This document shows, in pieces, positions 1-55,059 of a stretch of 64,000 nt of DNA (its first letter is position 1; each line of letters opens with the position of its first letter). The translations under genes and the position numbers were made by a program. The notes under the pieces are model-generated. The model had not been told where the DNA came from and did not search any database. It was given only the letters and a program-made list of their open reading frames with translations. Origin of the DNA: an uncultured virus (IMG/VR IMGVR_UViG_3300044657_000873) (lineage: Duplodnaviria > Heunggongvirae > Uroviricota > Caudoviricetes); IMG/VR virus record IMGVR_UViG_3300044657_000873. One strand, 5' to 3'.

Positions 1-3000
1 GTATTTGAAACTAACCATCCATATTTTATTGAATTGGGACTCGGCACGTTTACTACCGGAACTTTACTTGAGTGGTGGAATGAGCGTGATAATTTAGGAA
101 GATATCTAAATAGGCGGCACATCAATGTTCCTTCTGGCCCAACTGATAAACTTGATGATTCTGGGAAAACTCTACAAAACCTCTTGGGTATAACTGATAC
201 TACAGAATTTTCTTGGTACGGATGGAAACCAAACTTGGATCTTGAAAATGCTGGAAGATTCACAAAGCAAAATCTCAAAGGTTTAGGTTCTAACGAGGGT
301 GGAGAAGATAGTCAAATATGGTCATATGCTGGGAAAACAACCGCAGGAATAGGTGATATTGGGGAAACCATTGATACCCTAAAATTAGACACAGAAAATC
401 CGGTTATTGGAGTTTATCTTGACGGTGATGATGATCTGTTTACTGTTAGGCCGTTGTATGTCGGTGCAGCAGACCCGTACAGCCCTCCCGACCCTCCTAC
501 CCCAGAACAATTAGCGAAGGAATTTTTAGAATCCATTAATGCAGATGACCCTGATGACTCTGATGACTCTGCTGCTCTTGATGAGTATTATGCCCCATTA
601 AAAGATATAACCCCTCTGTATAGCTTGATTCAACTTAACAAGTTTATGAATCATTTCGATGATTACTATCCAAGAGAAACTTGGAAATTGAATGAAGCCA
701 ACACACATCCCGGACTAGAAAAGAAACAGGCTTTTGGCTCATACGCACTCTTAAATGAAATTAAATCAGCCAAAGGTAGCCCTAAAGTGCAATGGTCTGG
801 TGACGCTACATTCTTTATAAATCAGAATGATGGGCTTATAGAAGGCTGTCCTCCGATAACAGAGAATATTACATTTAGTCTTTACCTCAAAGACGAATCA
901 ATGATTGCAAAGACTGGCAAAGCAATCACTATGAAGGAAATGACGTTTGTTGGACCAAGGCGAGATGCTGTAGGTGCAACTGGTGGAGTAGATGGTGAGC
1001 GACTTGACAATAATCCAGAAGATGTTACTGGGCAGGCTGCTGGAGAGGTAGATCTTCAATGGAATCCTGTTAGTAAGAAGTGGCAAAGCGGAAACGTAAA
1101 CATGTTTTGTAAACTTGTTACGCAACTGAAACCCGGAAAAGCTCCCACACTAGACTATCTCTTAAGTAATGATATTAAAGAAACACTAGAAGAAGAAGAT
1201 AATGCAAATTGCTATATTCCTTCTCGCGGCTCTGGTATGCTCATTAGAACACAGAACAGTATGCCCCTTCAGTGGTCGCCCAACTACGCACAAACAGCAG
1301 ATACAAGATGTGGTCCAGATGGCAATACAAACAAGCAAATTGTTCCTGTTTACAACTTTAATCCAAGAAAAACATATCCATCAGGCGAAGAAGTTTTGCT
1401 TACGCAGATTGACGGTGTTTGGCATGTTAGTGACTTGGGTCAAGGTGAAGAAGAAGAAGCAGCACCGCCGGTTGCTACAGGTATTGGAAAATGGGGACCA
1501 TTTACTTACACTATGACATCCAGTCAGTTTTTCTTTAAGGGTATACCCATTTTTGACGGAAACCGTCCTCAGGATGAGGATGATGGACGAGGGTACGTAG
1601 ATGTCACCCCTAGAGATGCAGAGCTAGGCTTTCATGTTAATTATTATCTTTCCGCTGGAGAAGAAGATAAATATTTAAACTTGTATCGTAAATACGATCT
1701 CCCCGGTGATGAAGTAACTGGCAGAACACCCAACGGTGGATACAATTTTACTCAACCGTTCAACACTGAAAACTATAAACGGTGGAGTGATCGGCCTGCA
1801 TATTTTCAGCAAACATCATTTGATTACCTAGACAGTAAAGTTTTTGGAATACGAGGAAAACAAGGGTCCATCGGCACGCACCCAGACACGTGCTCAATTG
1901 CTTCTACTTCTGCCACCGTTAATTCTGCGGGTCAAGTTATTCCTTTTGAGGCTTCTGAATACACAGTCAGAAACTCTGCAAACTGCGGTGCATTTTTTGG
2001 GTGCGTATTCCCCGATGGTTATAAAGGTACAGAAGAATATGACTCTGATGATTCTAGAAGTTTTACTATAGTAGCAACAGGGGCAGGTAGTATTGATGCA
2101 TCAAAGTACTTTACAGAAAAAAATGATGATGGGAGTAATCCCTTTGATCCGGGGAACGGTATAGAGGATAGAAATGACGCCAGCGTTGGGGCACTTGGTC
2201 AAACCGAAGACCCACTTAAGTCTTACGATGTAACGGAAAACGGTTGGTCTAGAGGAAGCGAAAGGTATCAACCCAATATATTCTATATGGGTGCCGCCAA
2301 CAAACGTAAAAGTATGCCAGCAGATGTTATGCTTAATGCTTCTCCAGATGGAAAGAATGGAAGCCCAATCAAGCCAATAGGCGTGTTCAATGATATTTAT
2401 CCCACTGGGACTGGGGATATGTTTAATAGTTTTATAACATCAATACCGGGTAAAGTTAATGCAGGAGCTTGGTTATCCAGACAATTAGAAAATGGAAATA
2501 ATGATCAGAGTGCATTTGATTTTGAGCCTGTAAGTCCGGGTAATATCATGTTTAGACCTCTGAAACTAGAGGCTTATCTTGGTATGGGAAGGTTAAGTAC
2601 TCCATTTTCTGAAATTGGTAATCCAATGAATGTGGAAGATGTGAAAGATTGGGTAGAAAAACAGAGTATCCCAAATTTTAGCCAAGCAAGAAGCTTTCCC
2701 TATACCATATTTACTGAAATAGCAACATCTACGGTAAGTAGAAACTTGCCAATTTCTGCATATGCACCTGATCGTGAATTTCCAAATACTAAGGGTAATC
2801 TTGCTGGATATGAAAACGGAAATAACTCCGCTCATAGTCCGTTAAAATGGGGGGCTTGGACACTACACAAGAAAAACTATAGCAAATTGCATGAGTATAG
2901 CTATTGGGAAGAAAATATCGACTACGGTGGAATGTTTTGGACTAAGGAATTTATCTTGAACGGTGATCCGTACAGAATAGATCCAGCGAAAGGTGCAACA

Positions 3001-4419
3001 GGAGAAGAGAATTGGAAGGGTGCGGGAGCTTTTGGAATTATTGGAACAAACTTAAAGGTTAAAGCAAACACAACTATAGGATTCACCACAAGAAATCTGT
3101 ATGGTATGGGTGCAGGAGCCGCTGGTAGCTTTACCATTCAAGGTGGTTACGCACAACAGAACAAGACTTGGGGCGTCAGCAACTTTATAGAAAGTTATAA
3201 GCAAGAAAACATTATAGACCTCAGTGTTAGAATTTATCAGGGGCACCCTGCGGATCAAACTCTTTATGACCCAAGGTATTTTGCGGTCCATCACTTTAAT
3301 CCGGGTGTAGACTTTGTGCTTGACAAATATCGAGGAACTGGGACTATTCCAACAAATGAATTGGGGCAAGGTAAACCTATTCCAAGAAATTACCTGTCTT
3401 ATGAGTTTAAAAATCTGAGAGGTAGTGATGGCGATCTTTTAGATACCGTAACTTACGAGTTCCCAGAGGCTAGTGGTGCCGATATTAGAATCCCAAGTAG
3501 GTGGGAGAAGCACATAGACTCTGAAGTTGGAGATGCTCACCAAAATGACAGAACATATGATCCAATTAAACTTCCCTCAGATAGTACTGTTTTCAAAGAT
3601 GCTACGGTAGACTTGGGTGCCAGTACTCCTTCGCCACCATTGATGGATGATAAATATTGGTTGGTAGACACAAAAAGAAATGGTAAATTATTGCCCTATA
3701 GATACTACGCAAAAACACTAGGTATTCCTACATCTTCTTCTCATGTTGAAATGGTTAAAGAGGAGGACGTTAAAGGTGAGCAAGTTTGGGGCCACGCATC
3801 AAAATTAATTGTGACCAATTATGGCACAGGGTTCGCCATAGACGATGCGGTTGGTATATTTGAAAAGGATATTGTTTTAAGAGTTACAGGAACGGGCGAG
3901 TTGGGTTCCGTTACTGGATTATCAGTAGAAAGATTTGGATCTGGTATTTCGGTCAATCAAACGAGAGCTACTGGAGATCTAATTGGTAGCTTTACGTCCA
4001 ATTTTACAATATCTCCAATTGTTGGTGCCGGTGAGGGCTTCAATGGATACTTTGTCGCTGCTGGACTGCAAAATAGTATTCAATATGATGACAAACCGTT
4101 CCTTATAAAAAGAAATGGTGAGGAAATAAACAGGATCGCTGCCAACGAACCCGGACCAAAAAATGTTTCTACTGGGGCAAACGCTCAAGCAGAATCGCTG
4201 GCGTTTATTGAAGATACTGAGACCGTCGAATATACCATTCACGATTTGCTCAAGTCTGACGATGGTTCATATGACATTTTCTTCCATTTTCATAATGACA
4301 TAAGTATGACTTGGTTTGCTTGCGGTTCCCACTCAAATTCAACTCCGTGGGGCGATCTCAGAAACATAGCAGAATCCAACGAACAATTTATTTCAATTGA
4401 AGGTATAAACTTACTCTAA
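1..4419 (+). CDS. Large probable virion structural protein (tail/baseplate-associated), 5' truncated
   Basis: Frame is open from base 1; >1460 aa, Gly/Asn/Asp/Thr-rich, no enzyme motif; lies opposite the replication genes. Confidence 0.55.
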   Translation, partial: VFETNHPYFIELGLGTFTTGTLLEWWNERDNLGRYLNRRHINVPSGPTDKLDDSGKTLQNLLGITDTTEFSWYGWKPNLDLENAGRFTKQNLKGLGSNEGGEDSQIWSYAGKTTAGIGDIGETIDTLKLDTENPVIGVYLDGDDDLFTVRPLYVGAADPYSPPDPPTPEQLAKEFLESINADDPDDSDDSAALDEYYAPLKDITPLYSLIQLNKFMNHFDDYYPRETWKLNEANTHPGLEKKQAFGSYALLNEIKSAKGSPKVQWSGDATFFINQNDGLIEGCPPITENITFSLYLKDESMIAKTGKAITMKEMTFVGPRRDAVGATGGVDGERLDNNPEDVTGQAAGEVDLQWNPVSKKWQSGNVNMFCKLVTQLKPGKAPTLDYLLSNDIKETLEEEDNANCYIPSRGSGMLIRTQNSMPLQWSPNYAQTADTRCGPDGNTNKQIVPVYNFNPRKTYPSGEEVLLTQIDGVWHVSDLGQGEEEEAAPPVATGIGKWGPFTYTMTSSQFFFKGIPIFDGNRPQDEDDGRGYVDVTPRDAELGFHVNYYLSAGEEDKYLNLYRKYDLPGDEVTGRTPNGGYNFTQPFNTENYKRWSDRPAYFQQTSFDYLDSKVFGIRGKQGSIGTHPDTCSIASTSATVNSAGQVIPFEASEYTVRNSANCGAFFGCVFPDGYKGTEEYDSDDSRSFTIVATGAGSIDASKYFTEKNDDGSNPFDPGNGIEDRNDASVGALGQTEDPLKSYDVTENGWSRGSERYQPNIFYMGAANKRKSMPADVMLNASPDGKNGSPIKPIGVFNDIYPTGTGDMFNSFITSIPGKVNAGAWLSRQLENGNNDQSAFDFEPVSPGNIMFRPLKLEAYLGMGRLSTPFSEIGNPMNVEDVKDWVEKQSIPNFSQARSFPYTIFTEIATSTVSRNLPISAYAPDREFPNTKGNLAGYENGNNSAHSPLKWGAWTLHKKNYSKLHEYSYWEENIDYGGMFWTKEFILNGDPYRIDPAKGATGEENWKGAGAFGIIGTNLKVKANTTIGFTTRNLYGMGAGAAGSFTIQGGYAQQNKTWGVSNFIESYKQENIIDLSVRIYQGHPADQTLYDPRYFAVHHFNPGVDFVLDKYRGTGTIPTNELGQGKPIPRNYLSYEFKNLRGSDGDLLDTVTYEFPEASGADIRIPSRWEKHIDSEVGDAHQNDRTYDPIKLPSDSTVFKDATVDLGASTPSPPLMDDKYWLVDTKRNGKLLPYRYYAKTLGIPTSSSHVEMVKEEDVKGEQVWGHASKLIVTNYGTGFAIDDAVGIFEKDIVLRVTGTGELGSVTGLSVERFGSGISVNQTRATGDLIGSFTSNFTISPIVGAGEGFNGYFVAAGLQNSIQYDDKPFLIKRNGEEINRIAANEPGPKNVSTGANAQAESLAFIEDTETVEYTIHDLLKSDDGSYDIFFHFHNDISMTWFACGSHSNSTPWGDLRNIAESNEQFISIEGINLL

Positions 4420-22211: not shown

Positions 22212-23777
22212 CTACATTTCGTGAATTTTATTAACAATAAACGAATTATCCTTCTCGATCTCACCGCAGAGCATGAGATTGGCACCTTCATAGAGAACAA
22301 ACTGATATTTGTCTCTTGCGTCTGGGAAAACGATAACATTGTCTAGAGAGCAAGTGGCATCTTCGATTGTCAGGAACGACATAATCCGGCCCTTTTGCTT
22401 GCTATTCTTCTTGTTAATTTTATGATTAGCTACACGTTGGACATTCGCTACAATGCAAATATCCTTGCCAAACTTTCCGTTGGCTACTTCTTGACATGTA
22501 GTGTTAGCGATTGATGCGTCGATAGCATCTGTGTATTGATACGAAATTGGACAACCCAAGAGTTTGACCTCTTCTGCAATAACCCATTGCGGCTCATCAG
22601 ACATTTCATATGGTGGATTTTTTAGCATCTCAATCTCACCGTACACAATCTGACTACGATTGGCGTTGCTACAGCCACCACCCATCTTCTTGGTAGGAGA
22701 CAGATCTTTGAAACAATCCTGTAGTTTTGACCACTTCTTTTCAGGATAGTTCTCTGTTACCCATTTTACTTCTGTCTTAGTTAGCTCACGCCAAATTAGG
22801 TATTCGTAAAGAGCTTGATTCCTAGTCACTCCAGTTGACTTGGTAGAGAAAAATCCAATACCAGAAAGTGCCTTGAGAGCCGTAGATGTGATCTTAGGTG
22901 CGATGTAAACGAGAACATCCATCCAAGTAAAATCTTTTAGAGGCTTATTGATTTCTTCTGACGTTTCGTGAATAGCTTTGATAACTTTATCACCAGTGAC
23001 ACCAGTAAGACCTTTAACGTCACGAACTCCAAACTGAATGTCATCGCCAAAGATGGCAAACTTCTCAGAGAACCTGTTTAGTTTAGGAGTCTTTACTAGT
23101 ATATTGAATAGTTTAGCTTCGTTTACTAGCTCATAGATTTCCCGATGAGTATCTTGCTTTTCATTCGCATAGTACAGATAGGACAAGAAGAACTCTTTTG
23201 TGTAGTTCGCCTTATAGTACGCAGACCAGTATGAATCGAGTGCATAGGCAACGGCGTGAGACTTATTAAAAGAATAACGAGACGACTTTTCAATCCAGTC
23301 AAAAATCTGGTTTGCAGCGTCTTGATCTACAAGTCCGACCTTCCCACACCCCTCAATAAACTGTCCACGAATCTCAGTCATGAGAGACGCTTTCTTTTTA
23401 CCAATAGCTTTACGAAGGTTATCTGCCTCCATCTCATTGAATCCCGCAGCTTTAACCGCGATAAGCATAGCCTGTTCTTGGTATACAAGTACGCCATACG
23501 TGGTCTCTAGAATTTCTTCTAGACTAGGATGAGGATAAACGACATCTTCTCTTTTATGTTTACGGTCTACGAAGTGCTGAGTCATAGACTTGCCCTCGCT
23601 AACCGCCTTCAACGTTCCGGGCCTGATGATAGCGATCAATGCCGCTAGTTCTTCAAGGTTTTCCGGTGCAACTCTTTTGGACCATGCACGACCAAGGTTA
23701 CTCTCAAGTTGAAAAAGCCCCTTAGTCAATCCGTCTTTGTATAAGGCCCAAGCCTTTGGATCATTTTTGTCAATCAT
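22212..23777 (-). CDS. dnaE: DNA polymerase III alpha, C-terminal part (fingers, HhH, OB)
   Basis: GLFQLES, IRPG, TYGVLVYQEQ, LRKAIGKK, YSFNKSHAVAY. Confidence 0.92.
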   Translation of the reverse strand: MIDKNDPKAWALYKDGLTKGLFQLESNLGRAWSKRVAPENLEELAALIAIIRPGTLKAVSEGKSMTQHFVDRKHKREDVVYPHPSLEEILETTYGVLVYQEQAMLIAVKAAGFNEMEADNLRKAIGKKKASLMTEIRGQFIEGCGKVGLVDQDAANQIFDWIEKSSRYSFNKSHAVAYALDSYWSAYYKANYTKEFFLSYLYYANEKQDTHREIYELVNEAKLFNILVKTPKLNRFSEKFAIFGDDIQFGVRDVKGLTGVTGDKVIKAIHETSEEINKPLKDFTWMDVLVYIAPKITSTALKALSGIGFFSTKSTGVTRNQALYEYLIWRELTKTEVKWVTENYPEKKWSKLQDCFKDLSPTKKMGGGCSNANRSQIVYGEIEMLKNPPYEMSDEPQWVIAEEVKLLGCPISYQYTDAIDASIANTTCQEVANGKFGKDICIVANVQRVANHKINKKNSKQKGRIMSFLTIEDATCSLDNVIVFPDARDKYQFVLYEGANLMLCGEIEKDNSFIVNKIHEM

Positions 23778-23784
23778 TTAAATC

Positions 23785-23874
23785 TCAATAATCTCCTAAA
23801 ATACTTTCTTCTAGATTAAATTTTGGTATAGACAAAATATATCTTTTAATTTCCTCTAATTCAATGTCGCTCAT
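23785..23874 (-). pseudogene. 29-aa ORF or gene remnant
   Basis: ATGA overlap with the exonuclease stop; MSDIELEEIKRYILSIPKFNLEESILGDY. Confidence 0.35.
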
Positions 23875-24545
23875 ACGAACAATTTCCCATCGGCAAATGC
23901 TTTTTCAAATTTCATATTTCTGTAGACTGCTCGTCTGGACTTTTGCAGTTTGATCCAGATATTTGCTGTATCCTTAACGTCTTGGAGAGCATCGTGAGCG
24001 TTCTCACTGGATAGTCCCATTCTTTCTCGCAAGCTATCCATACTAATAGACTTAACATTTGGATCTCCTTCTGTCCACATCCACACATCGTCCATTACGT
24101 CAATTTTATAAATCTGATGAAAGAGTTTCTGGCAGCATCGCTTGTCATCATACGGTCCATACTGTTTGCACAGCCTGTCAACGATCTTCATGTCGTATCC
24201 GAGAATGTTGAATCCGCAGGGAATGGGTGCGAAGTAGGGCGTGCCCTTCCAATTGTACTTATTGACAAACGTACAGAACTTCTTCCAAACGCCCTTTGGT
24301 AGTGGTGCCTTGGCAAGTTGTTCTCTTGTTTGCCCCGTTACTTTCAACGCTCCTTCTTCAATAGGGTCAACACCAGCGGCAATAGCTTCATCATCATCTA
24401 TAATGGGACGCATCATACTATTAAATGAACCCTTTAGCTTAAAGTTCCTACCGTCAAGTGCGATAGCAGCAATCTGTGTAGGTTGGCAACGGAGCGGGTT
24501 ACGCCCTCCTGTTTCAAAGTCGAACACGACGATATCCCGATTCAT
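23871..24545 (-). CDS. DEDDh 3'-5' exonuclease (epsilon-like)
   Basis: FDFETGG, GFNILGYD, AHDALQD. Confidence 0.88.
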   Translation of the reverse strand: MNRDIVVFDFETGGRNPLRCQPTQIAAIALDGRNFKLKGSFNSMMRPIIDDDEAIAAGVDPIEEGALKVTGQTREQLAKAPLPKGVWKKFCTFVNKYNWKGTPYFAPIPCGFNILGYDMKIVDRLCKQYGPYDDKRCCQKLFHQIYKIDVMDDVWMWTEGDPNVKSISMDSLRERMGLSSENAHDALQDVKDTANIWIKLQKSRRAVYRNMKFEKAFADGKLFV

Positions 24546-24547
24546 AG

Positions 24548-24735
24548 TTATTTCCTATCTGAATGTGAAAAAGTTTTTTGTATCTCTTGGCTTTTATTTT
24601 GAAAAGTAACAGCTTCACAAAAGTCTAAAAACTCTTGTTCTTCCATGTTGCCTTTCATTATATTAACCCTTTTGTGCAACCACTGCACGTTTCCTTCGAT
24701 ATACCCTTTCGAGCTATCAATTTCAAGACACGTAG
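24548..24735 (-). pseudogene. Truncated HNH-type homing endonuclease
   Basis: IDSSKGYIEGNVQWLHKRVNIMK...FLDFC*; N-terminal part missing. Confidence 0.7.
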
Positions 24736-26367
24736 TTATGCTGATTTTCCCAGCAATTCTTCAATATACATCAATTTATCGAGGAGATTCAACCCAAGAA
24801 GGTCAAACTTAACGTGACCTAGTGCTTCTAGATCGTTCATTTCCAATCCCGCAATCTTTTCGCCGCCACTCTTTTGGTTCACCATAGGGCAAACTTTGTA
24901 TAGTGGTGCGGAAGAGATAACAACGCCAGCAGCGTGTTTTCCCTGTGTCTTAAATGTACCTTCAATATCAATGGCCTGCTGGAAGTATTCTGCAAAGTCT
25001 CCCTGCAATCTACCCTCATCGTCGATATGGCAGTAGTCCATAAGGTCGTCTGCACGATTCTGTAATGTCCAGCGAATGATAGAGCGATCTTCTTCGTCCA
25101 TCTGTGAAAGTTGGTCAGAAATGGCGGCTTCGTCTGGAATGTACTTTGTGATCTCGTTCATTTCGGCAAAACCACAAGCATCATTTACACGAAGAACTTC
25201 TTTCATCGCACTTCGCCCTTGCAATCTACCAAACGTGAGCATCTGACTAACATTGTTAGATCCGTACTTCTCTTTGAGTCTAGCGATGATCTCATCACGT
25301 TTATTTCCGGGAACGTCCATATCAACATCAGGTAAAGAGATGTGATCTTCTGTATTACGACCCTCATTGTAGAATCGTTCAAACAGCAGATTAAACTCGA
25401 TGGGGTCAATCTCTGTAATACCAACTAGGTAGGAAATAAGGCAACCGGCAGCAGATCCACGGCCCGGACCTACCATCCAGCCCTGCTCACGACACCAATT
25501 TAAAATATCCCAAACGATGAGAAAATACCCAAACAGATTTGCTTTTTCAATAACGGCAAACTCTTTGTTAAATCTGTCGCCATAGGTTTTTCTATCTAGC
25601 TCACTCTTGATCTTGTCATTTAGTAGTGTCATCCAACCTTGTCTTGCGAGGTGACGTAGGTAGTCGCCCTCGCTTTTATAATCAGACGGTATATCAAACT
25701 TGGGAAGGATGGGCTTGCTAAGAATATTAAAATTCTCTACCTTGTTTAAGATTTCATCAAACTCATCCATACGAGGGTCGTCGATAACTAACTTTGCAGA
25801 CTCTAACTTGTCTTTAAGGTAAAAATCACTAGAATCAAAGAATACAGAAAGGTCATCTTGTTCCACGCCATTCTTCTTTACTTTATGTAGAGTGGTCTTT
25901 AGTTTTCCACAAAGCACAATCCTGTGCAAATCTGCTTGGCTTTTATCTGAGTAAAAAGTTTTTAAGAAAGCATCAGACCATTGGTAAAAGTCATCGCCAG
26001 TAATTGGAGACAGAGCCTCTGAATTGGCAATGCAAATAAGGTTGCCTTGTCGTGCTAGGCGAACCATAGTGCCTCGATCCTCATTACCGTCTGTATCAAT
26101 TGTAGAGACAATCTCGATGAGGTTCAGCCATCCCTCATGGTTTTTGGCAAAAAGAGCAAAGCCATCGAAAGAACAACCAATAATAGGTTTGATATCATTG
26201 TCGATGCAGGCTTTATAGAAAGATACAGCACCACTGATTGTTTTGTAATCAGCGATGCCACATGCGGGGTAAGAATTCTGCTTGCACTTCTTAGCAAGCT
26301 CATTTGGCTTGGAAAAGCCGTACTGTAGCGAATAGTGGGTGTAGTTCAGTAGCGGAAACCACTTCAT
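24736..26367 (-). CDS. dnaE: DNA polymerase III alpha, N-terminal part (PHP, palm, thumb)
   Basis: THYSL, GPGRGSAAG, FERF, PDVDMD, GKHAAG, VKFDLLGL. Confidence 0.93.
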   Translation of the reverse strand: MKWFPLLNYTHYSLQYGFSKPNELAKKCKQNSYPACGIADYKTISGAVSFYKACIDNDIKPIIGCSFDGFALFAKNHEGWLNLIEIVSTIDTDGNEDRGTMVRLARQGNLICIANSEALSPITGDDFYQWSDAFLKTFYSDKSQADLHRIVLCGKLKTTLHKVKKNGVEQDDLSVFFDSSDFYLKDKLESAKLVIDDPRMDEFDEILNKVENFNILSKPILPKFDIPSDYKSEGDYLRHLARQGWMTLLNDKIKSELDRKTYGDRFNKEFAVIEKANLFGYFLIVWDILNWCREQGWMVGPGRGSAAGCLISYLVGITEIDPIEFNLLFERFYNEGRNTEDHISLPDVDMDVPGNKRDEIIARLKEKYGSNNVSQMLTFGRLQGRSAMKEVLRVNDACGFAEMNEITKYIPDEAAISDQLSQMDEEDRSIIRWTLQNRADDLMDYCHIDDEGRLQGDFAEYFQQAIDIEGTFKTQGKHAAGVVISSAPLYKVCPMVNQKSGGEKIAGLEMNDLEALGHVKFDLLGLNLLDKLMYIEELLGKSA

Positions 26368-26413
26368 AGTTATCCTTTTCAATTTTTAATTCAATGTTTT
26401 GCTCGACTACCCT

Positions 26414-53290: not shown

Positions 53291-53319
53291 ATTATAGTCT
53301 ACAAACCGCGATTTGTCAA
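53291..53319 (-). promoter_or_regulatory. Consensus sigma70 promoter
   Basis: TTGACA-17-TATAAT with GTAGAC. Confidence 0.85.
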
Positions 53320-53326
53320 GTGTTTT

Positions 53327-53860
53327 TCATAAATTTTCAAACTTTTCTGCGGATTCAATAAGTGGATAATTACATAGGTAATTCTTAGGAAAAAACTTAA
53401 ACTCAATCCTATCTTCAATCTGCTCTAGTATTTCATTGTAACCATCGCTCCACATGCACGACTTTGGTGAAGAGATGTTGGTGTAGTAGATTTCGTGGAT
53501 TCCGCACTGCCATAACATCTGTAGACATTCTCGACATGGGATTGCTGTAATATAAGCTCTTGCACCCATTGTGCTTTGACCTTCACGGGCAGCATTATAA
53601 ATAGCGTTAGCCTCTGCGTGAATCATAAAAGGATACTTAGCAGGTCTTGTGTCAGGAAGCATGAAGTCGTTTACACCTCTAATAAAACCGTTATAACCTG
53701 TTGCTATAATTGTCTTATTCTTTACTAATACGCAACCGCACTGAGTTTCGGAATCATGACTCTTACGCGACCACAAAGTTGCAGTAGCGAAGAACATATT
53801 ATCCCAATCATCAGGTCGATTCTCTTGCATTAAATAAGACAGTATAAGTTTCTCTGACAT
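53327..53860 (-). CDS. dCMP deaminase
   Basis: TGYNG, HAEANAI, PCREC. Confidence 0.92.
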   Translation of the reverse strand: MSEKLILSYLMQENRPDDWDNMFFATATLWSRKSHDSETQCGCVLVKNKTIIATGYNGFIRGVNDFMLPDTRPAKYPFMIHAEANAIYNAAREGQSTMGARAYITAIPCRECLQMLWQCGIHEIYYTNISSPKSCMWSDGYNEILEQIEDRIEFKFFPKNYLCNYPLIESAEKFENL

Positions 53861-53878
53861 AGTAACCTCCAAAAAAAG

Positions 53879-53950
53879 TAAGCGGTCTAGGAATCGAACC
53901 TAGCCACGAGGATTTGGAATCCTTGTCGCCACCTTGGAACATTACCGCTT
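53879..53950 (-). tRNA. tRNA-Trp (CCA anticodon), 3' CCA not encoded
   Basis: Acceptor AAGCGGT/ACCGCTT, anticodon loop TTCCAAA, T arm CTAGG-TTCGATT-CCTAG; weak D arm. Confidence 0.85.
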
Positions 53951-53956
53951 GTAAAA

Positions 53957-54197
53957 GCCAGTTTGGATAATAAGGTACTGGCAAGACCCCAGACAGCTTA
54001 CGCCGCCAAAGCAAAACAAGGTTCTGCAATTAAATTTTAGTCAGCTTTTTACGAGGCCAACTGACCAACCTCGACATGCAGTAATTACCTACGCAACCAG
54101 TCGATACCATTACGCCCCCTTGGTTTGGTAATTGGAGGCGGCGAGAGTCGAACTCGCGTCCTGCGTTGTTTCAATAACAACGTCTACATGTTTAGTC
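53957..54197 (-). ncRNA. ssrA: Circularly permuted two-piece tmRNA
   Basis: Acceptor piece (~54197-54133: TAAACATGTAG...GAC, T arm, CGCCTCCA) precedes coding piece (54119-53957: GGGGGCG, PK1, tag AEPCFALAA*, PK2); G3:U70 pair. Confidence 0.9.
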
Positions 54198-54596
54198 TTT
54201 CTTGCGAAAGAACTTCTTTATTTGCTCAGACATGGTTTTCATTTCATCCTTGCCCATATCTGTCAATGTATAATAAAAGTTACCGTCCTCTCCAATTAAC
54301 TGGTCTACATATCCTGTTTTCATTAATTCTAAAATATCGTCTTGTACCTCATTCTGAAATGCCTGCATCTCTTTTTTAAGAAAACTTAGCGTTAGAGGTT
54401 CTTCATCAAGCTCAAACTCAAATACGTCATAAGCTATTTCGCTAGACACTTTGGGATCTTGATGTGTATTTGCTTCTAATTCATTTACATATTCCAATGC
54501 TTTTTCAAGTGTTGAGCATACACCAACTGGTTCTACTGAAAAGTCAGTGACAACTTTACCCTCTGCCGCAATCGAAACGATAACATATACTTTCAT
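54192..54596 (-). CDS. Hypothetical acidic protein
   Basis: 134 aa; stop codon overlaps the tmRNA acceptor piece. Confidence 0.6.
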   Translation of the reverse strand: MKVYVIVSIAAEGKVVTDFSVEPVGVCSTLEKALEYVNELEANTHQDPKVSSEIAYDVFEFELDEEPLTLSFLKKEMQAFQNEVQDDILELMKTGYVDQLIGEDGNFYYTLTDMGKDEMKTMSEQIKKFFRKKD

Positions 54597-54607
54597 TATT
54601 ATACACC

Positions 54608-54706
54608 CTAATCCAACAATTTGTAATATTTATTTAATGTTTTAAGTCGATCATCTGCATCTGTCAACTGAGGCAAAGTGTCTGACTTGTAAAGAATGTG
54701 ACTCAT
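54608..54706 (-). pseudogene. 32-aa ORF or gene remnant
   Basis: ATGA-coupled MSHILYKSDTLPQLTDADDRLKTLNKYYKLLD. Confidence 0.35.
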
Positions 54707-55059
54707 TTCTTCTCTCCATAAGGCCAAATTTTGGCAAGTTCATCTGTAACACCATCGATCTCCACCAACCAACGACCATATTTTCCTGTTTTACTTGTCC
54801 TGATTATTACCTCAGTTTCGACTGGAAACCCATGCCGATGGTATGGGTGCAGGACTGGGTTATGTATACCTGCTGATTTATATAATAAATCTTGACACAT
54901 ATCTTTAGCTTTAGCCCAAGCTGGGTGGCCACGCTCAGGTGTGTCTACTCCGAGTAGTCTGGTTCGTATAACCATATGCACCTTAAAGCCAAGATCCACC
55001 ACAAAATCTACAGTATCTCCGTCCACAACCCGTTTGACTCTAGCACGATATTCATACAT
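54703..55059 (-). CDS. Thermonuclease (SNase-like) protein
   Basis: RVVDGDT, RLLGVDTPE, GKYGRWL. Confidence 0.88.
   Translation of the reverse strand: MYEYRARVKRVVDGDTVDFVVDLGFKVHMVIRTRLLGVDTPERGHPAWAKAKDMCQDLLYKSAGIHNPVLHPYHRHGFPVETEVIIRTSKTGKYGRWLVEIDGVTDELAKIWPYGEKK

Follow-up and report, generated by a model that had tools for sequence, protein, structure and literature searches.

A circularly permuted tmRNA gene in a large estuarine phage with one-piece relatives

A window of 64,000 nucleotides (nt) of an uncultured caudoviricete virus (IMG/VR record IMGVR_UViG_3300044657_000873) contains, on the minus strand at 53957–54191, what can be taken with little room for doubt as a real gene for a two-piece transfer-messenger RNA (tmRNA). 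Two-piece tmRNA is the textbook circularly permuted RNA gene and is thought to have had few origins: in the Alphaproteobacteria, in a betaproteobacterial lineage, in some cyanobacteria and in mitochondria. The point of interest of the gene described here is its probable independent origin, rather than the presence of a permuted tmRNA in a phage as such.

The gene and its parts

ARAGORN called a permuted tmRNA with the tag AEPCFALAA*, and the Rfam model RF04321 (tmRNA_permuted) matched 53998–54191(−) over model positions 1–213 with 83.8 bits against a cut-off of 47 (E 1.4e-14). An earlier note on this DNA, made from the letters alone, had claimed a compact, circularly permuted tmRNA and proposed ARAGORN and Infernal with permuted models as the check. 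Both programs bear the claim out, each element that it had listed was found in its place on the minus strand when the sequence was read, and the gene is indeed compact, with two pseudoknots only (PK1 and PK2). Three features had escaped the note: the helix-5-like hairpin around the stop codon (54007–53992), the small hairpin 5' of the gene (54211–54196) and a tRNA-Trp gene beginning 6 nt past the last pseudoknot. The gene order is permuted, as the T arm and CGCCUCC-A (54157–54133) lie upstream of GGGGGCG (54119–54113). The parts, all on the minus strand and read directly from the sequence unless another source is named, are as follows.

53957–54191: two-piece tmRNA gene; a 5' hairpin extends to 54211
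54133–54191: acceptor piece, with the helix 2 3' strands (ACAUGUAG..), T arm, acceptor 3' strand and discriminator (RF04321 alignment; pair counts for helices 1–5)
54157–54153 and 54145–54141: T arm, GCGAG and CTCGC, with loop TTCGACT
54140–54134: acceptor 3' strand CGCCTCC, followed by discriminator A at 54133
54132–54120: spacer of 13 nt, ATTACCAAACCAA / AUUACCAAACCAA
53957–54119: coding piece, with the acceptor 5' strand, helix 2 5' strands, PK1, tag frame, helix-5-like hairpin and PK2
54119–54113: acceptor 5' strand GGGGGCG
54191–54184 with 54081–54074: inter-piece helix, ACATGTAG with CTGCATGT
54073–54069 with 54056–54052: stem 1 of PK1 (54073–54040), CGAGG with CCTCG
54065–54059 with 54046–54040: stem 2 of PK1, GTCAGTT with AGCTGAC
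54027–53998: tag frame GCA GAA CCU UGU UUU GCU UUG GCG GCG UAA, AEPCFALAA* (ARAGORN)
53992–54007: helix-5-like hairpin GGCGGC-GUAA-GCUGUC; its loop contains the stop codon (per-sequence pair counts; also in the minimum-energy fold)
53990–53986 with 53976–53972: stem 1 of PK2 (53990–53957), GGGGT with ACCTT
53982–53978 with 53961–53957: stem 2 of PK2, GCCAG with CTGGC
54196–54211: small hairpin UCUUUC-GCAA-GAAAGA directly 5' of the tmRNA, within the end of the upstream open reading frame (ORF) (minimum-energy fold)

The tag frame opens with the resume codon GCA after PK1 and closes on a hydrophobic C-terminal end. The letters 3' of the discriminator A54133 are ATT, so that CCA is not encoded, and the 13-nt intervening segment at 54120–54132 is presumably removed during maturation. 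In its minimum-energy fold the precursor forms the small 5' hairpin, outer helix 2, T arm and acceptor stem, along with helix 5 and one of the two PK2 stems (z-score −2.17; 3 of 200 shuffled sequences fold equally well). Two ORFs that overlap the gene, 53811–54029 (−) and 54125–54379 (+), were rejected as coding sequences because the region scores as tmRNA and varies in a paired fashion.

A two-piece family and its one-piece relatives

Relatives were sought in IMG/VR with a search pattern built on the T arm, the spacer and the acceptor strand of the window gene. This found 91 stretches, 16 of which resemble the window gene over 120–390 nt, and two further scans added members with longer spacers, giving a total of more than 20 different viral contigs. 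The nine-residue tags of the family (AEPCFALAA, AEPCLALAA, ADESLALAA, ANESLALAA, VEKNFALAA, VEENFALAA, AEENFALVA, GVENYAMAA and AKPSFALAA) end in ALAA, AMAA or ALVA. The ARAGORN tags of three loci (L062, L085 and L022) start with Val (GUC) and those of two (L075 and L126) with Gly (GGC), rather than with the usual Ala resume codon.

Covariation was assessed on an alignment of 14 distinct family sequences holding 52 pairs and 724 cells. Under the proposed fold 90.2% of the cells are paired and 10 of the 52 pairs have changed on both sides. In 500 shuffles the percentage paired, the counts of pairs or cells changed on both sides and the covariation score stayed below the observed values every time, while the count of further pair types was reached by 30 of the 500; control structures in which the 3' partners were slid by 1–3 columns were 36–50% paired. 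Stem 1 of PK1, which appears unpaired in the alignment-wide count owing to an alignment shift, was recounted sequence by sequence and is fully paired in 14/14, in three versions (CGAGG/CCTCG, GCTGG/CCAGC and CGTAG/CTACG). The hairpin around the stop codon has 6/6 pairs, with changes on both sides, in each of the 13 family sequences in which the script pattern located it, and the fifth PK2 pair occurs as U-A, A-U, G-C and C-G across the family. The alanine identity element G3:U70 of the 7-bp acceptor stem is U-G in all 14 sequences, and the stem is 100% paired. Through such compensatory changes the family supports each helix of the fold, which argues that the gene is under selection as a tmRNA, tag frame included.

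Other traits of the family are less uniform. CCA is unencoded in all 15 distinct family sequences compared, the exception being a subgroup (L138 and its copies) in which it is encoded, and the spacer measures 12–13 nt in 10 family rows, with three others at 20, 70 and 123 nt. The identical loci L138, L141, L146 and L157, together with L126 and L139, stand out by their long intervening segments (123, 70 and ~52 nt); the 123-nt segment, in the same subgroup that encodes CCA, holds a T-arm-like stretch (GGTTCAAATCC). The genes lie within tRNA arrays. In the window and in L047, L022 and L032 a tRNA gene begins 5–6 nt past PK2, and in seven loci with five distinct sequences (L077=L066, L085, L075=L101, L056, L093, L032) a tRNA gene ends 15–20 nt upstream, with a small hairpin between it and the tmRNA.

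A search with the coding-piece motif of the family, in which the permuted order was not required, revealed genes of standard order. Three loci that are identical over 470 bases around the tmRNA (L116, L122 and L129) encode a one-piece tmRNA with the tag AESNLAIAA that scores 125.7 bits on the standard model RF00023. A fourth, L104, on a contig (G003:C13) of a SAR202 metagenome-assembled genome (MAG), is also one-piece, scores 108.6 bits and has the tag AEKNFALAA, a sequence nearly that of the two-piece locus L085. Both L116 and L104 align collinearly with the coding and acceptor pieces of the family. They have the same 5' domain and PK1, a nine-residue tag, helix 5 and PK2; next come a linker of ~135 nt made of AT-rich hairpins, a further hairpin, GACUAA-CAAUGUAGAU.. 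and the T arm, and CCA is again unencoded. A BLAST search with L116 against GenBank phages returned T-arm stretches only.

The relationship extends beyond the tmRNA itself. The 33-kb phage contig of L122 shares at least 8 gene regions, at 34–63% amino-acid identity, with the window or with G001, an IMG/VR record near-identical to the window (95 kb, CheckV 57%) that has the same tmRNA gene and further tRNA genes. The L122 tmRNA lies between tRNA-Ile(tat) and tRNA-Leu(taa)/tRNA-Arg(tct), and the same tRNA types flank the family genes. Related phages that share this kind of tRNA array therefore retain both gene orders today, the standard one in L116 and L104 and the permuted one in the window and the other viral contigs. 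Since a one-piece phage shares genes as well as a tRNA array with the window, the gene order appears to have changed within one phage group.

The one-piece forms also bear on two details of the window gene. In most family members an additional hairpin separates helix 5 from PK2; it is absent in the subgroup of the window, in a copy linked to a Spirochaetota genome (described below) and in the one-piece relatives. Because the latter two lack it as well, the 'minimal' look of the window gene is probably the older state of the family and not a recent loss. The small hairpin directly 5' of the tmRNA has a counterpart of other sequence at the equivalent position in family members and one-piece relatives. 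It may be a processing or protective element, and possibly what is left of the final pseudoknot stem in a one-piece ancestor.

A pattern scan of 185,579 species genomes gave two hits, the SAR202 MAG (G003) and a Spirochaetota MAG (G002). In G003 a 152-kb contig (C7; L101/L110) carries a two-piece gene with the tag GVENYAMAA and matches a 166.8-kb IMG/VR phage contig without a difference over the 315 nt compared; this identity suggests that C7 is probably a phage contig in the bin. The same MAG has a standard tmRNA of 173 bits, and with C7 and C13 it holds two contigs carrying phage-family tmRNAs; either they are phage DNA that fell into the bin, or they offer a hint of the host.

In G002 the chromosome (L100/L114, 3277661–3278240) has a standard one-piece tmRNA of 169.7 bits with the tag ADEALPVAA; a 20-nt spacer then leads to a second coding piece that is family-like (AESNLALAA, PK1, helix 5 and PK2), so that the standard and the 'permuted' gene have one T arm and acceptor strand in common. 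A run of 100 N lies ~290 nt past the second coding piece, followed by ordinary metabolic genes. Possible readings of the junction are a tandem intermediate, the scar of an integration and a chimeric join at 35 nt identical to phage copies; the layout, a standard tmRNA with a second coding piece, is the expected stage of a duplication-and-loss route to permutation. The second coding piece is absent in 300 other sampled Spirochaetota genomes. The 301 sampled genomes match L116 in T-arm and helix-2 stretches only. No donor emerged from the scan or from this sample.

Origin of the permuted order

The window gene was scored on the three Rfam models of bacterial two-piece tmRNA. On the beta model RF01850 it reaches 67.5 bits against a cut-off of 84 (E 3e-20), end to end over model positions 1–331; on the alpha model RF01849 42.3 bits against 50 over positions 40–278, as scored on the near-identical G001; and on the cyanobacterial model RF01851 43.5 bits against 70, in the tRNA-like part only (positions 56–120). 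The family is below the cut-offs of all three lineage models, and only the new general model RF04321 or ARAGORN annotates it. When 28 other viral two-piece loci were put through the same scan, 10 passed the beta cut-off and none the alpha or cyanobacterial one, in a set that is biased because the scan pattern was derived from the window.

Taken alone, the lineage scores suggest a divergent gene of beta type, but the sequence at two places suggests otherwise. Before the T arm the window has GACUAAACAUGUAG, and at PK1 GCAUGUCGAGG..CCUCGUAAAAA, which match the consensus of the standard model RF00023 (GACUAAGCAUGUAG; GCAUGCCGAGG..CCUCGUAAA), whereas helix 2 and PK1 of the window are unlike the beta consensus (CAUgGUUGUauuCC; AGGCAACcCGuc..gaCGUuAau). 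The loop of the post-tag pseudoknot in the one-piece relatives is very similar to that of the family.

Maximum-likelihood trees were computed from the coding and acceptor parts, excised and set in one order; duplicates, L103 (the same DNA as L100) and nine loci with parts that the script did not locate were omitted. In the first tree (59 rows, 196 columns) the two-piece family forms one group (support 84/95), which adjoins L104 and L116 (94/89) and then the Spirochaetota-linked coding piece. All of these fall within a clade with Spirochaetota one-piece genes (98/90), and the loci that pass the beta cut-off, L011, L064 and L026, stand outside it. In the second tree (66 rows, 292 columns), to which the genes of E. 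coli, a Streptomyces phage and a Cellulophaga phage were added, the family and the one-piece forms again make a clade (96/90), which excludes every row passing the beta cut-off. Constraining the family to group with L011, L064 and L026 costs 39 log-likelihood units (p 0.036), for a group chosen after the tree was seen.

These results have led us to favour a reading in which the permutation probably arose within the phage group, independently of the alphaproteobacterial, betaproteobacterial and cyanobacterial events. As to the family as a whole, we lean slightly towards regarding it as a further circular permutation that took place within large aquatic phages and not in a bacterial lineage. Bacterial tmRNA is one-piece by default, so that a one-piece ancestor and a single permutation make the simplest account. 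The earlier note had offered an independent permutation in a phage as an inference, which the one-piece sisters and the trees now support better, and had named clustering with known two-piece lineages as an outcome that would speak against it. The trees group the family with one-piece forms instead, while a single origin of all two-piece genes survives the topology test described next, and the beta model remains the best of the lineage models.

Several observations weigh against an origin within the phages. The main rival is descent from a two-piece tmRNA of betaproteobacterial type, by capture from a host or by spread among aquatic phages, with later divergence and with a return of L116 and L104 to the standard order. 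Like the window, all 12 family loci that were tested fit RF01850 best among the lineage models, with scores of 58.5–83.6 bits, and the beta scores of the viral two-piece genes, ten of the 28 others above the cut-off included, grade continuously between 50.9 and 180.6. A likeness to the beta consensus is also seen in the loop of the post-tag pseudoknot, which is CCUUGUUACCAAAG in most members and CCUUAUUAUCCAAA in the window. A tree uniting all two-piece rows is not rejected by the approximately unbiased (AU) test (p 0.164 for the first tree, p 0.115 for the second), and in the second tree L104 and L116 stand in an unresolved three-way fork with two family subclades (13-row clade, 84/87), which is compatible with change in either direction. 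Sampling is sparse and biased: nearly all bacterial one-piece rows come from Spirochaetota and were selected for their similarity to L116, and only viral contigs above the Rfam cut-off stand for the beta type, with no chromosomal alphaproteobacterial, betaproteobacterial or cyanobacterial genes. A return to the standard order has, moreover, a precedent, as PMC11915505 records a re-permuted tmRNA gene in the mitochondria of Jakoba libera. Against such descent stand the scores of all the family members below the cut-off of 84, the helix-2 and PK1 sequences that follow the standard and not the beta consensus, the free trees that join the family to one-piece forms with the beta-passing rows outside, and the cost of the constrained (post hoc) grouping. 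On this evidence betaproteobacterial descent is possible but rather unlikely.

It is improbable that the RNA is made but, without rescuing ribosomes productively, serves as a decoy by sequestering host SmpB or by blocking trans-translation in the host. A precedent for such a role is the RNA of mycobacteriophage DS6A, described in PMC4131195 and PMC11915505, which consists of the tRNA-like domain only. A gene for SmpB (PF01668) was not found in the 95-kb G001 or in three relatives (G305, G307 and G308), one of the four being rated complete; a phage in which no SmpB is found implies an RNA that must compete for the SmpB of the host. A decoy, however, needs no tag frame, and here the frame, its nine-residue length and its ALAA/AMAA-type end are conserved along with PK1 and helix 5, with compensatory changes, which makes the decoy unlikely.

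The junction itself was examined in independent data. At least half of the sampled words of 53300–54700 occur in 16 DNA runs, mostly from estuaries and some marine, five of which may be the source. A contig from another study (run X9) covers the whole stretch with 4 substitutions and 1 inserted base; the substitution within the tmRNA, at 54165, turns a C-G pair of helix 2 into U-G. The presence of the locus in independent assemblies indicates that it is not a misassembly, and the misassembled junction that the earlier note had held out as a possible refutation is contradicted by many independent runs, by the X9 contig and by the viral contigs that carry the same junction. An artefact or dead remnant, whether a chimeric join of tmRNA fragments or the leftovers of an attachment site, is therefore scarcely credible: tmRNA genes are common integration sites that leave fragments (PMC4131195) and G002 has a standard tmRNA joined to a family-like coding piece near a 100-N gap, but the junction recurs as just described, no tyrosine integrase was found in G001 and three relatives (one rated complete), and all functional parts are intact and co-vary.

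The carrier phage, proposed working and known systems

PHROG matches around the locus agree with the earlier claim that the gene resides in a phage. They comprise a DnaE-type DNA polymerase (in two ORFs), a DnaB-like helicase, both ribonucleotide reductase subunits, a UvsX-like recombinase, a dCMP deaminase just downstream of a tRNA-Trp gene and an HNH endonuclease upstream; a single-stranded DNA-binding (SSB) protein was identified in the window by Pfam. A relative with a helicase 80% identical has a contig of 166.8 kb, rated complete by CheckV. The carrier is a large, virulent-looking phage of ~165 kb, uncultured and estuarine. Among 50,697 GenBank phage records its polymerase has no close relative, all matches being below 60% identity and the 15 listed at 26–34%; BLAST of the tmRNA locus against the same records returned nothing at E 1e-5 and, at E 1, only conserved stretches of 27–37 nt. 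Two genes adjoin the tmRNA.

53878–53950, minus: tRNA-Trp with anticodon CCA, 6 nt past PK2 (ARAGORN)
54192–54596, minus: upstream ORF of 134 amino acids with a weak DUF4364 match; its stop codon abuts the tmRNA

The upstream ORF is probably co-transcribed with the tmRNA, and the ORF ends upstream of the tmRNA in L138 and L139 look similar to that of the window when compared by eye. A promoter scan found one promoter-like site, at 54627–54598 upstream of the 134-amino-acid ORF, which is not above chance, and a terminator scan found none. About 100 nt upstream of this ORF lies an endonuclease ORF (phrog_452) at 54703–55059 (−), and a homologue is found close to the tRNA array in G305, the phage with the one-piece gene. 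Elsewhere in the window the DnaE-type polymerase is split over 22212–26382 (−), with 24736–26382 matching positions 248–616 of phrog_405 and 22212–23777 matching 626–1055; an ORF of 224 amino acids at 23871–24545 stands between the halves, and the polymerase may be a split gene with an inserted mobile element. An ORF of 1461 amino acids at 34–4419 (+), running off the left end on the strand opposite to nearly all genes, has no PHROG match.

RNA libraries were searched for the locus as well. Four RNA runs contained small shares of its words, and three of these and one DNA run were compared. The contigs of high depth in the RNA libraries match only 30–40 nt of PK1 or the T arm and then diverge from the window, which identifies them as the tmRNAs of other organisms; a 248-nt contig of X18, with ~90% identity over 53992–54073 (82 nt), is a relative. 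Exact contigs of 151–176 nt and depth ~2 from three estuary or seawater RNA libraries lie on neighbouring genes only, at 53456–53850 (dCMP deaminase) and 54261–54436 (upstream ORF), and may be transcripts or carried-over DNA.

By analogy with other tmRNAs, we propose a model in which the gene would be transcribed with its neighbours as a single precursor. RNase P would cut before G54119 and before tRNA-Trp at 53950 to yield a coding piece of ~165 nt, so that the 5' processing of the tRNA would set the 3' end of the coding piece. The 13-nt spacer would be trimmed back to A54133 and, since CCA is unencoded, the CCA-adding enzyme of the host would complete the end. The acceptor piece of ~60 nt would remain held to the coding piece by helix 2 and the acceptor stem. 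Alanyl-tRNA synthetase of the host could then charge the RNA through G3:U70, and with host SmpB it would enter stalled ribosomes, where translation would restart at GCA and append AEPCFALAA, whose LAA end is recognised by proteases.

The benefit to the phage probably lies in keeping ribosomes available as the mRNA of the infected host is degraded. In a large phage with many tRNA genes that degrades host nucleic acids, many ribosomes are likely to be caught on truncated mRNA; the phage tmRNA, working through SmpB, alanyl-tRNA synthetase, EF-Tu and proteases of the host, would free them and mark the fragments for degradation. A different advantage put forward in the earlier note, resistance of the permuted form to host nucleases that target ribosome rescue, found no support in the data.

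If the permutation did arise among these phages, a phage group with both forms of one gene would offer a recent, traceable example of the process. Phages would then generate permuted tmRNA genes as well as borrow them, and their tRNA arrays would be a site where permuted stable-RNA genes are made, with phages as a possible vehicle for their spread. Whatever its origin, the gene is one more auxiliary translation gene in a large, tRNA-rich phage. No description of a permutation arising within phages was found in the literature covered, which extends to PMC11915505 apart from its taxonomic breakdown of permuted forms.

Permuted phage tmRNA is not new in itself, since Buchholz et al. 2022 (PMC9004378) report 53 two-piece tmRNAs called by ARAGORN in phage genomes, among them the OM43 phage Melnitz, pelagimyophages and cyanophages, and describe the phage genes as clustering with the alphaproteobacterial, beta/gammaproteobacterial or cyanobacterial lineages of their hosts. 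Like the genes in that account, the window gene is a permuted ssrA of a large aquatic phage, called by ARAGORN, with a tag frame and without a reported phage SmpB, and the same role is proposed, that of maintaining translation or recycling proteins in infection. Unlike those genes it fails all three lineage cut-offs and has one-piece sisters, and the glutamine riboswitch described there is a feature of Melnitz.

Measured against the betaproteobacterial tmRNA of RF01850, the window gene is alike in the order of acceptor piece, spacer and coding piece, in PK1, in a short tag ending in ALAA and in a single post-tag pseudoknot with a similar loop. It differs in its 13-nt spacer, where the beta alignment has an unshown stretch of 29 positions, and in its unencoded CCA and lack of a terminal hairpin, in place of which there is a tRNA gene.

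The working model of two paired pieces resembles that of the Caulobacter tmRNA, which Keiler, Shapiro and Williams are said to have described in 2000: its precursor is reportedly cut into an acceptor and a coding piece that stay paired and carry out trans-translation. In contrast to the window gene, which scores below the alpha cut-off, the Caulobacter gene is reportedly alphaproteobacterial and chromosomal and works with an SmpB of its own genome. The closest likeness is to the one-piece genes L116 (with L122 and L129) and L104, which closely resemble the window gene in the 5' domain, PK1, nine-residue tag, helix 5, PK2, the hairpin with (GAC)UAA-CAUGUAG, the T arm and the unencoded CCA, but keep the standard order with its ~135-nt linker and score on RF00023 rather than on the permuted model.

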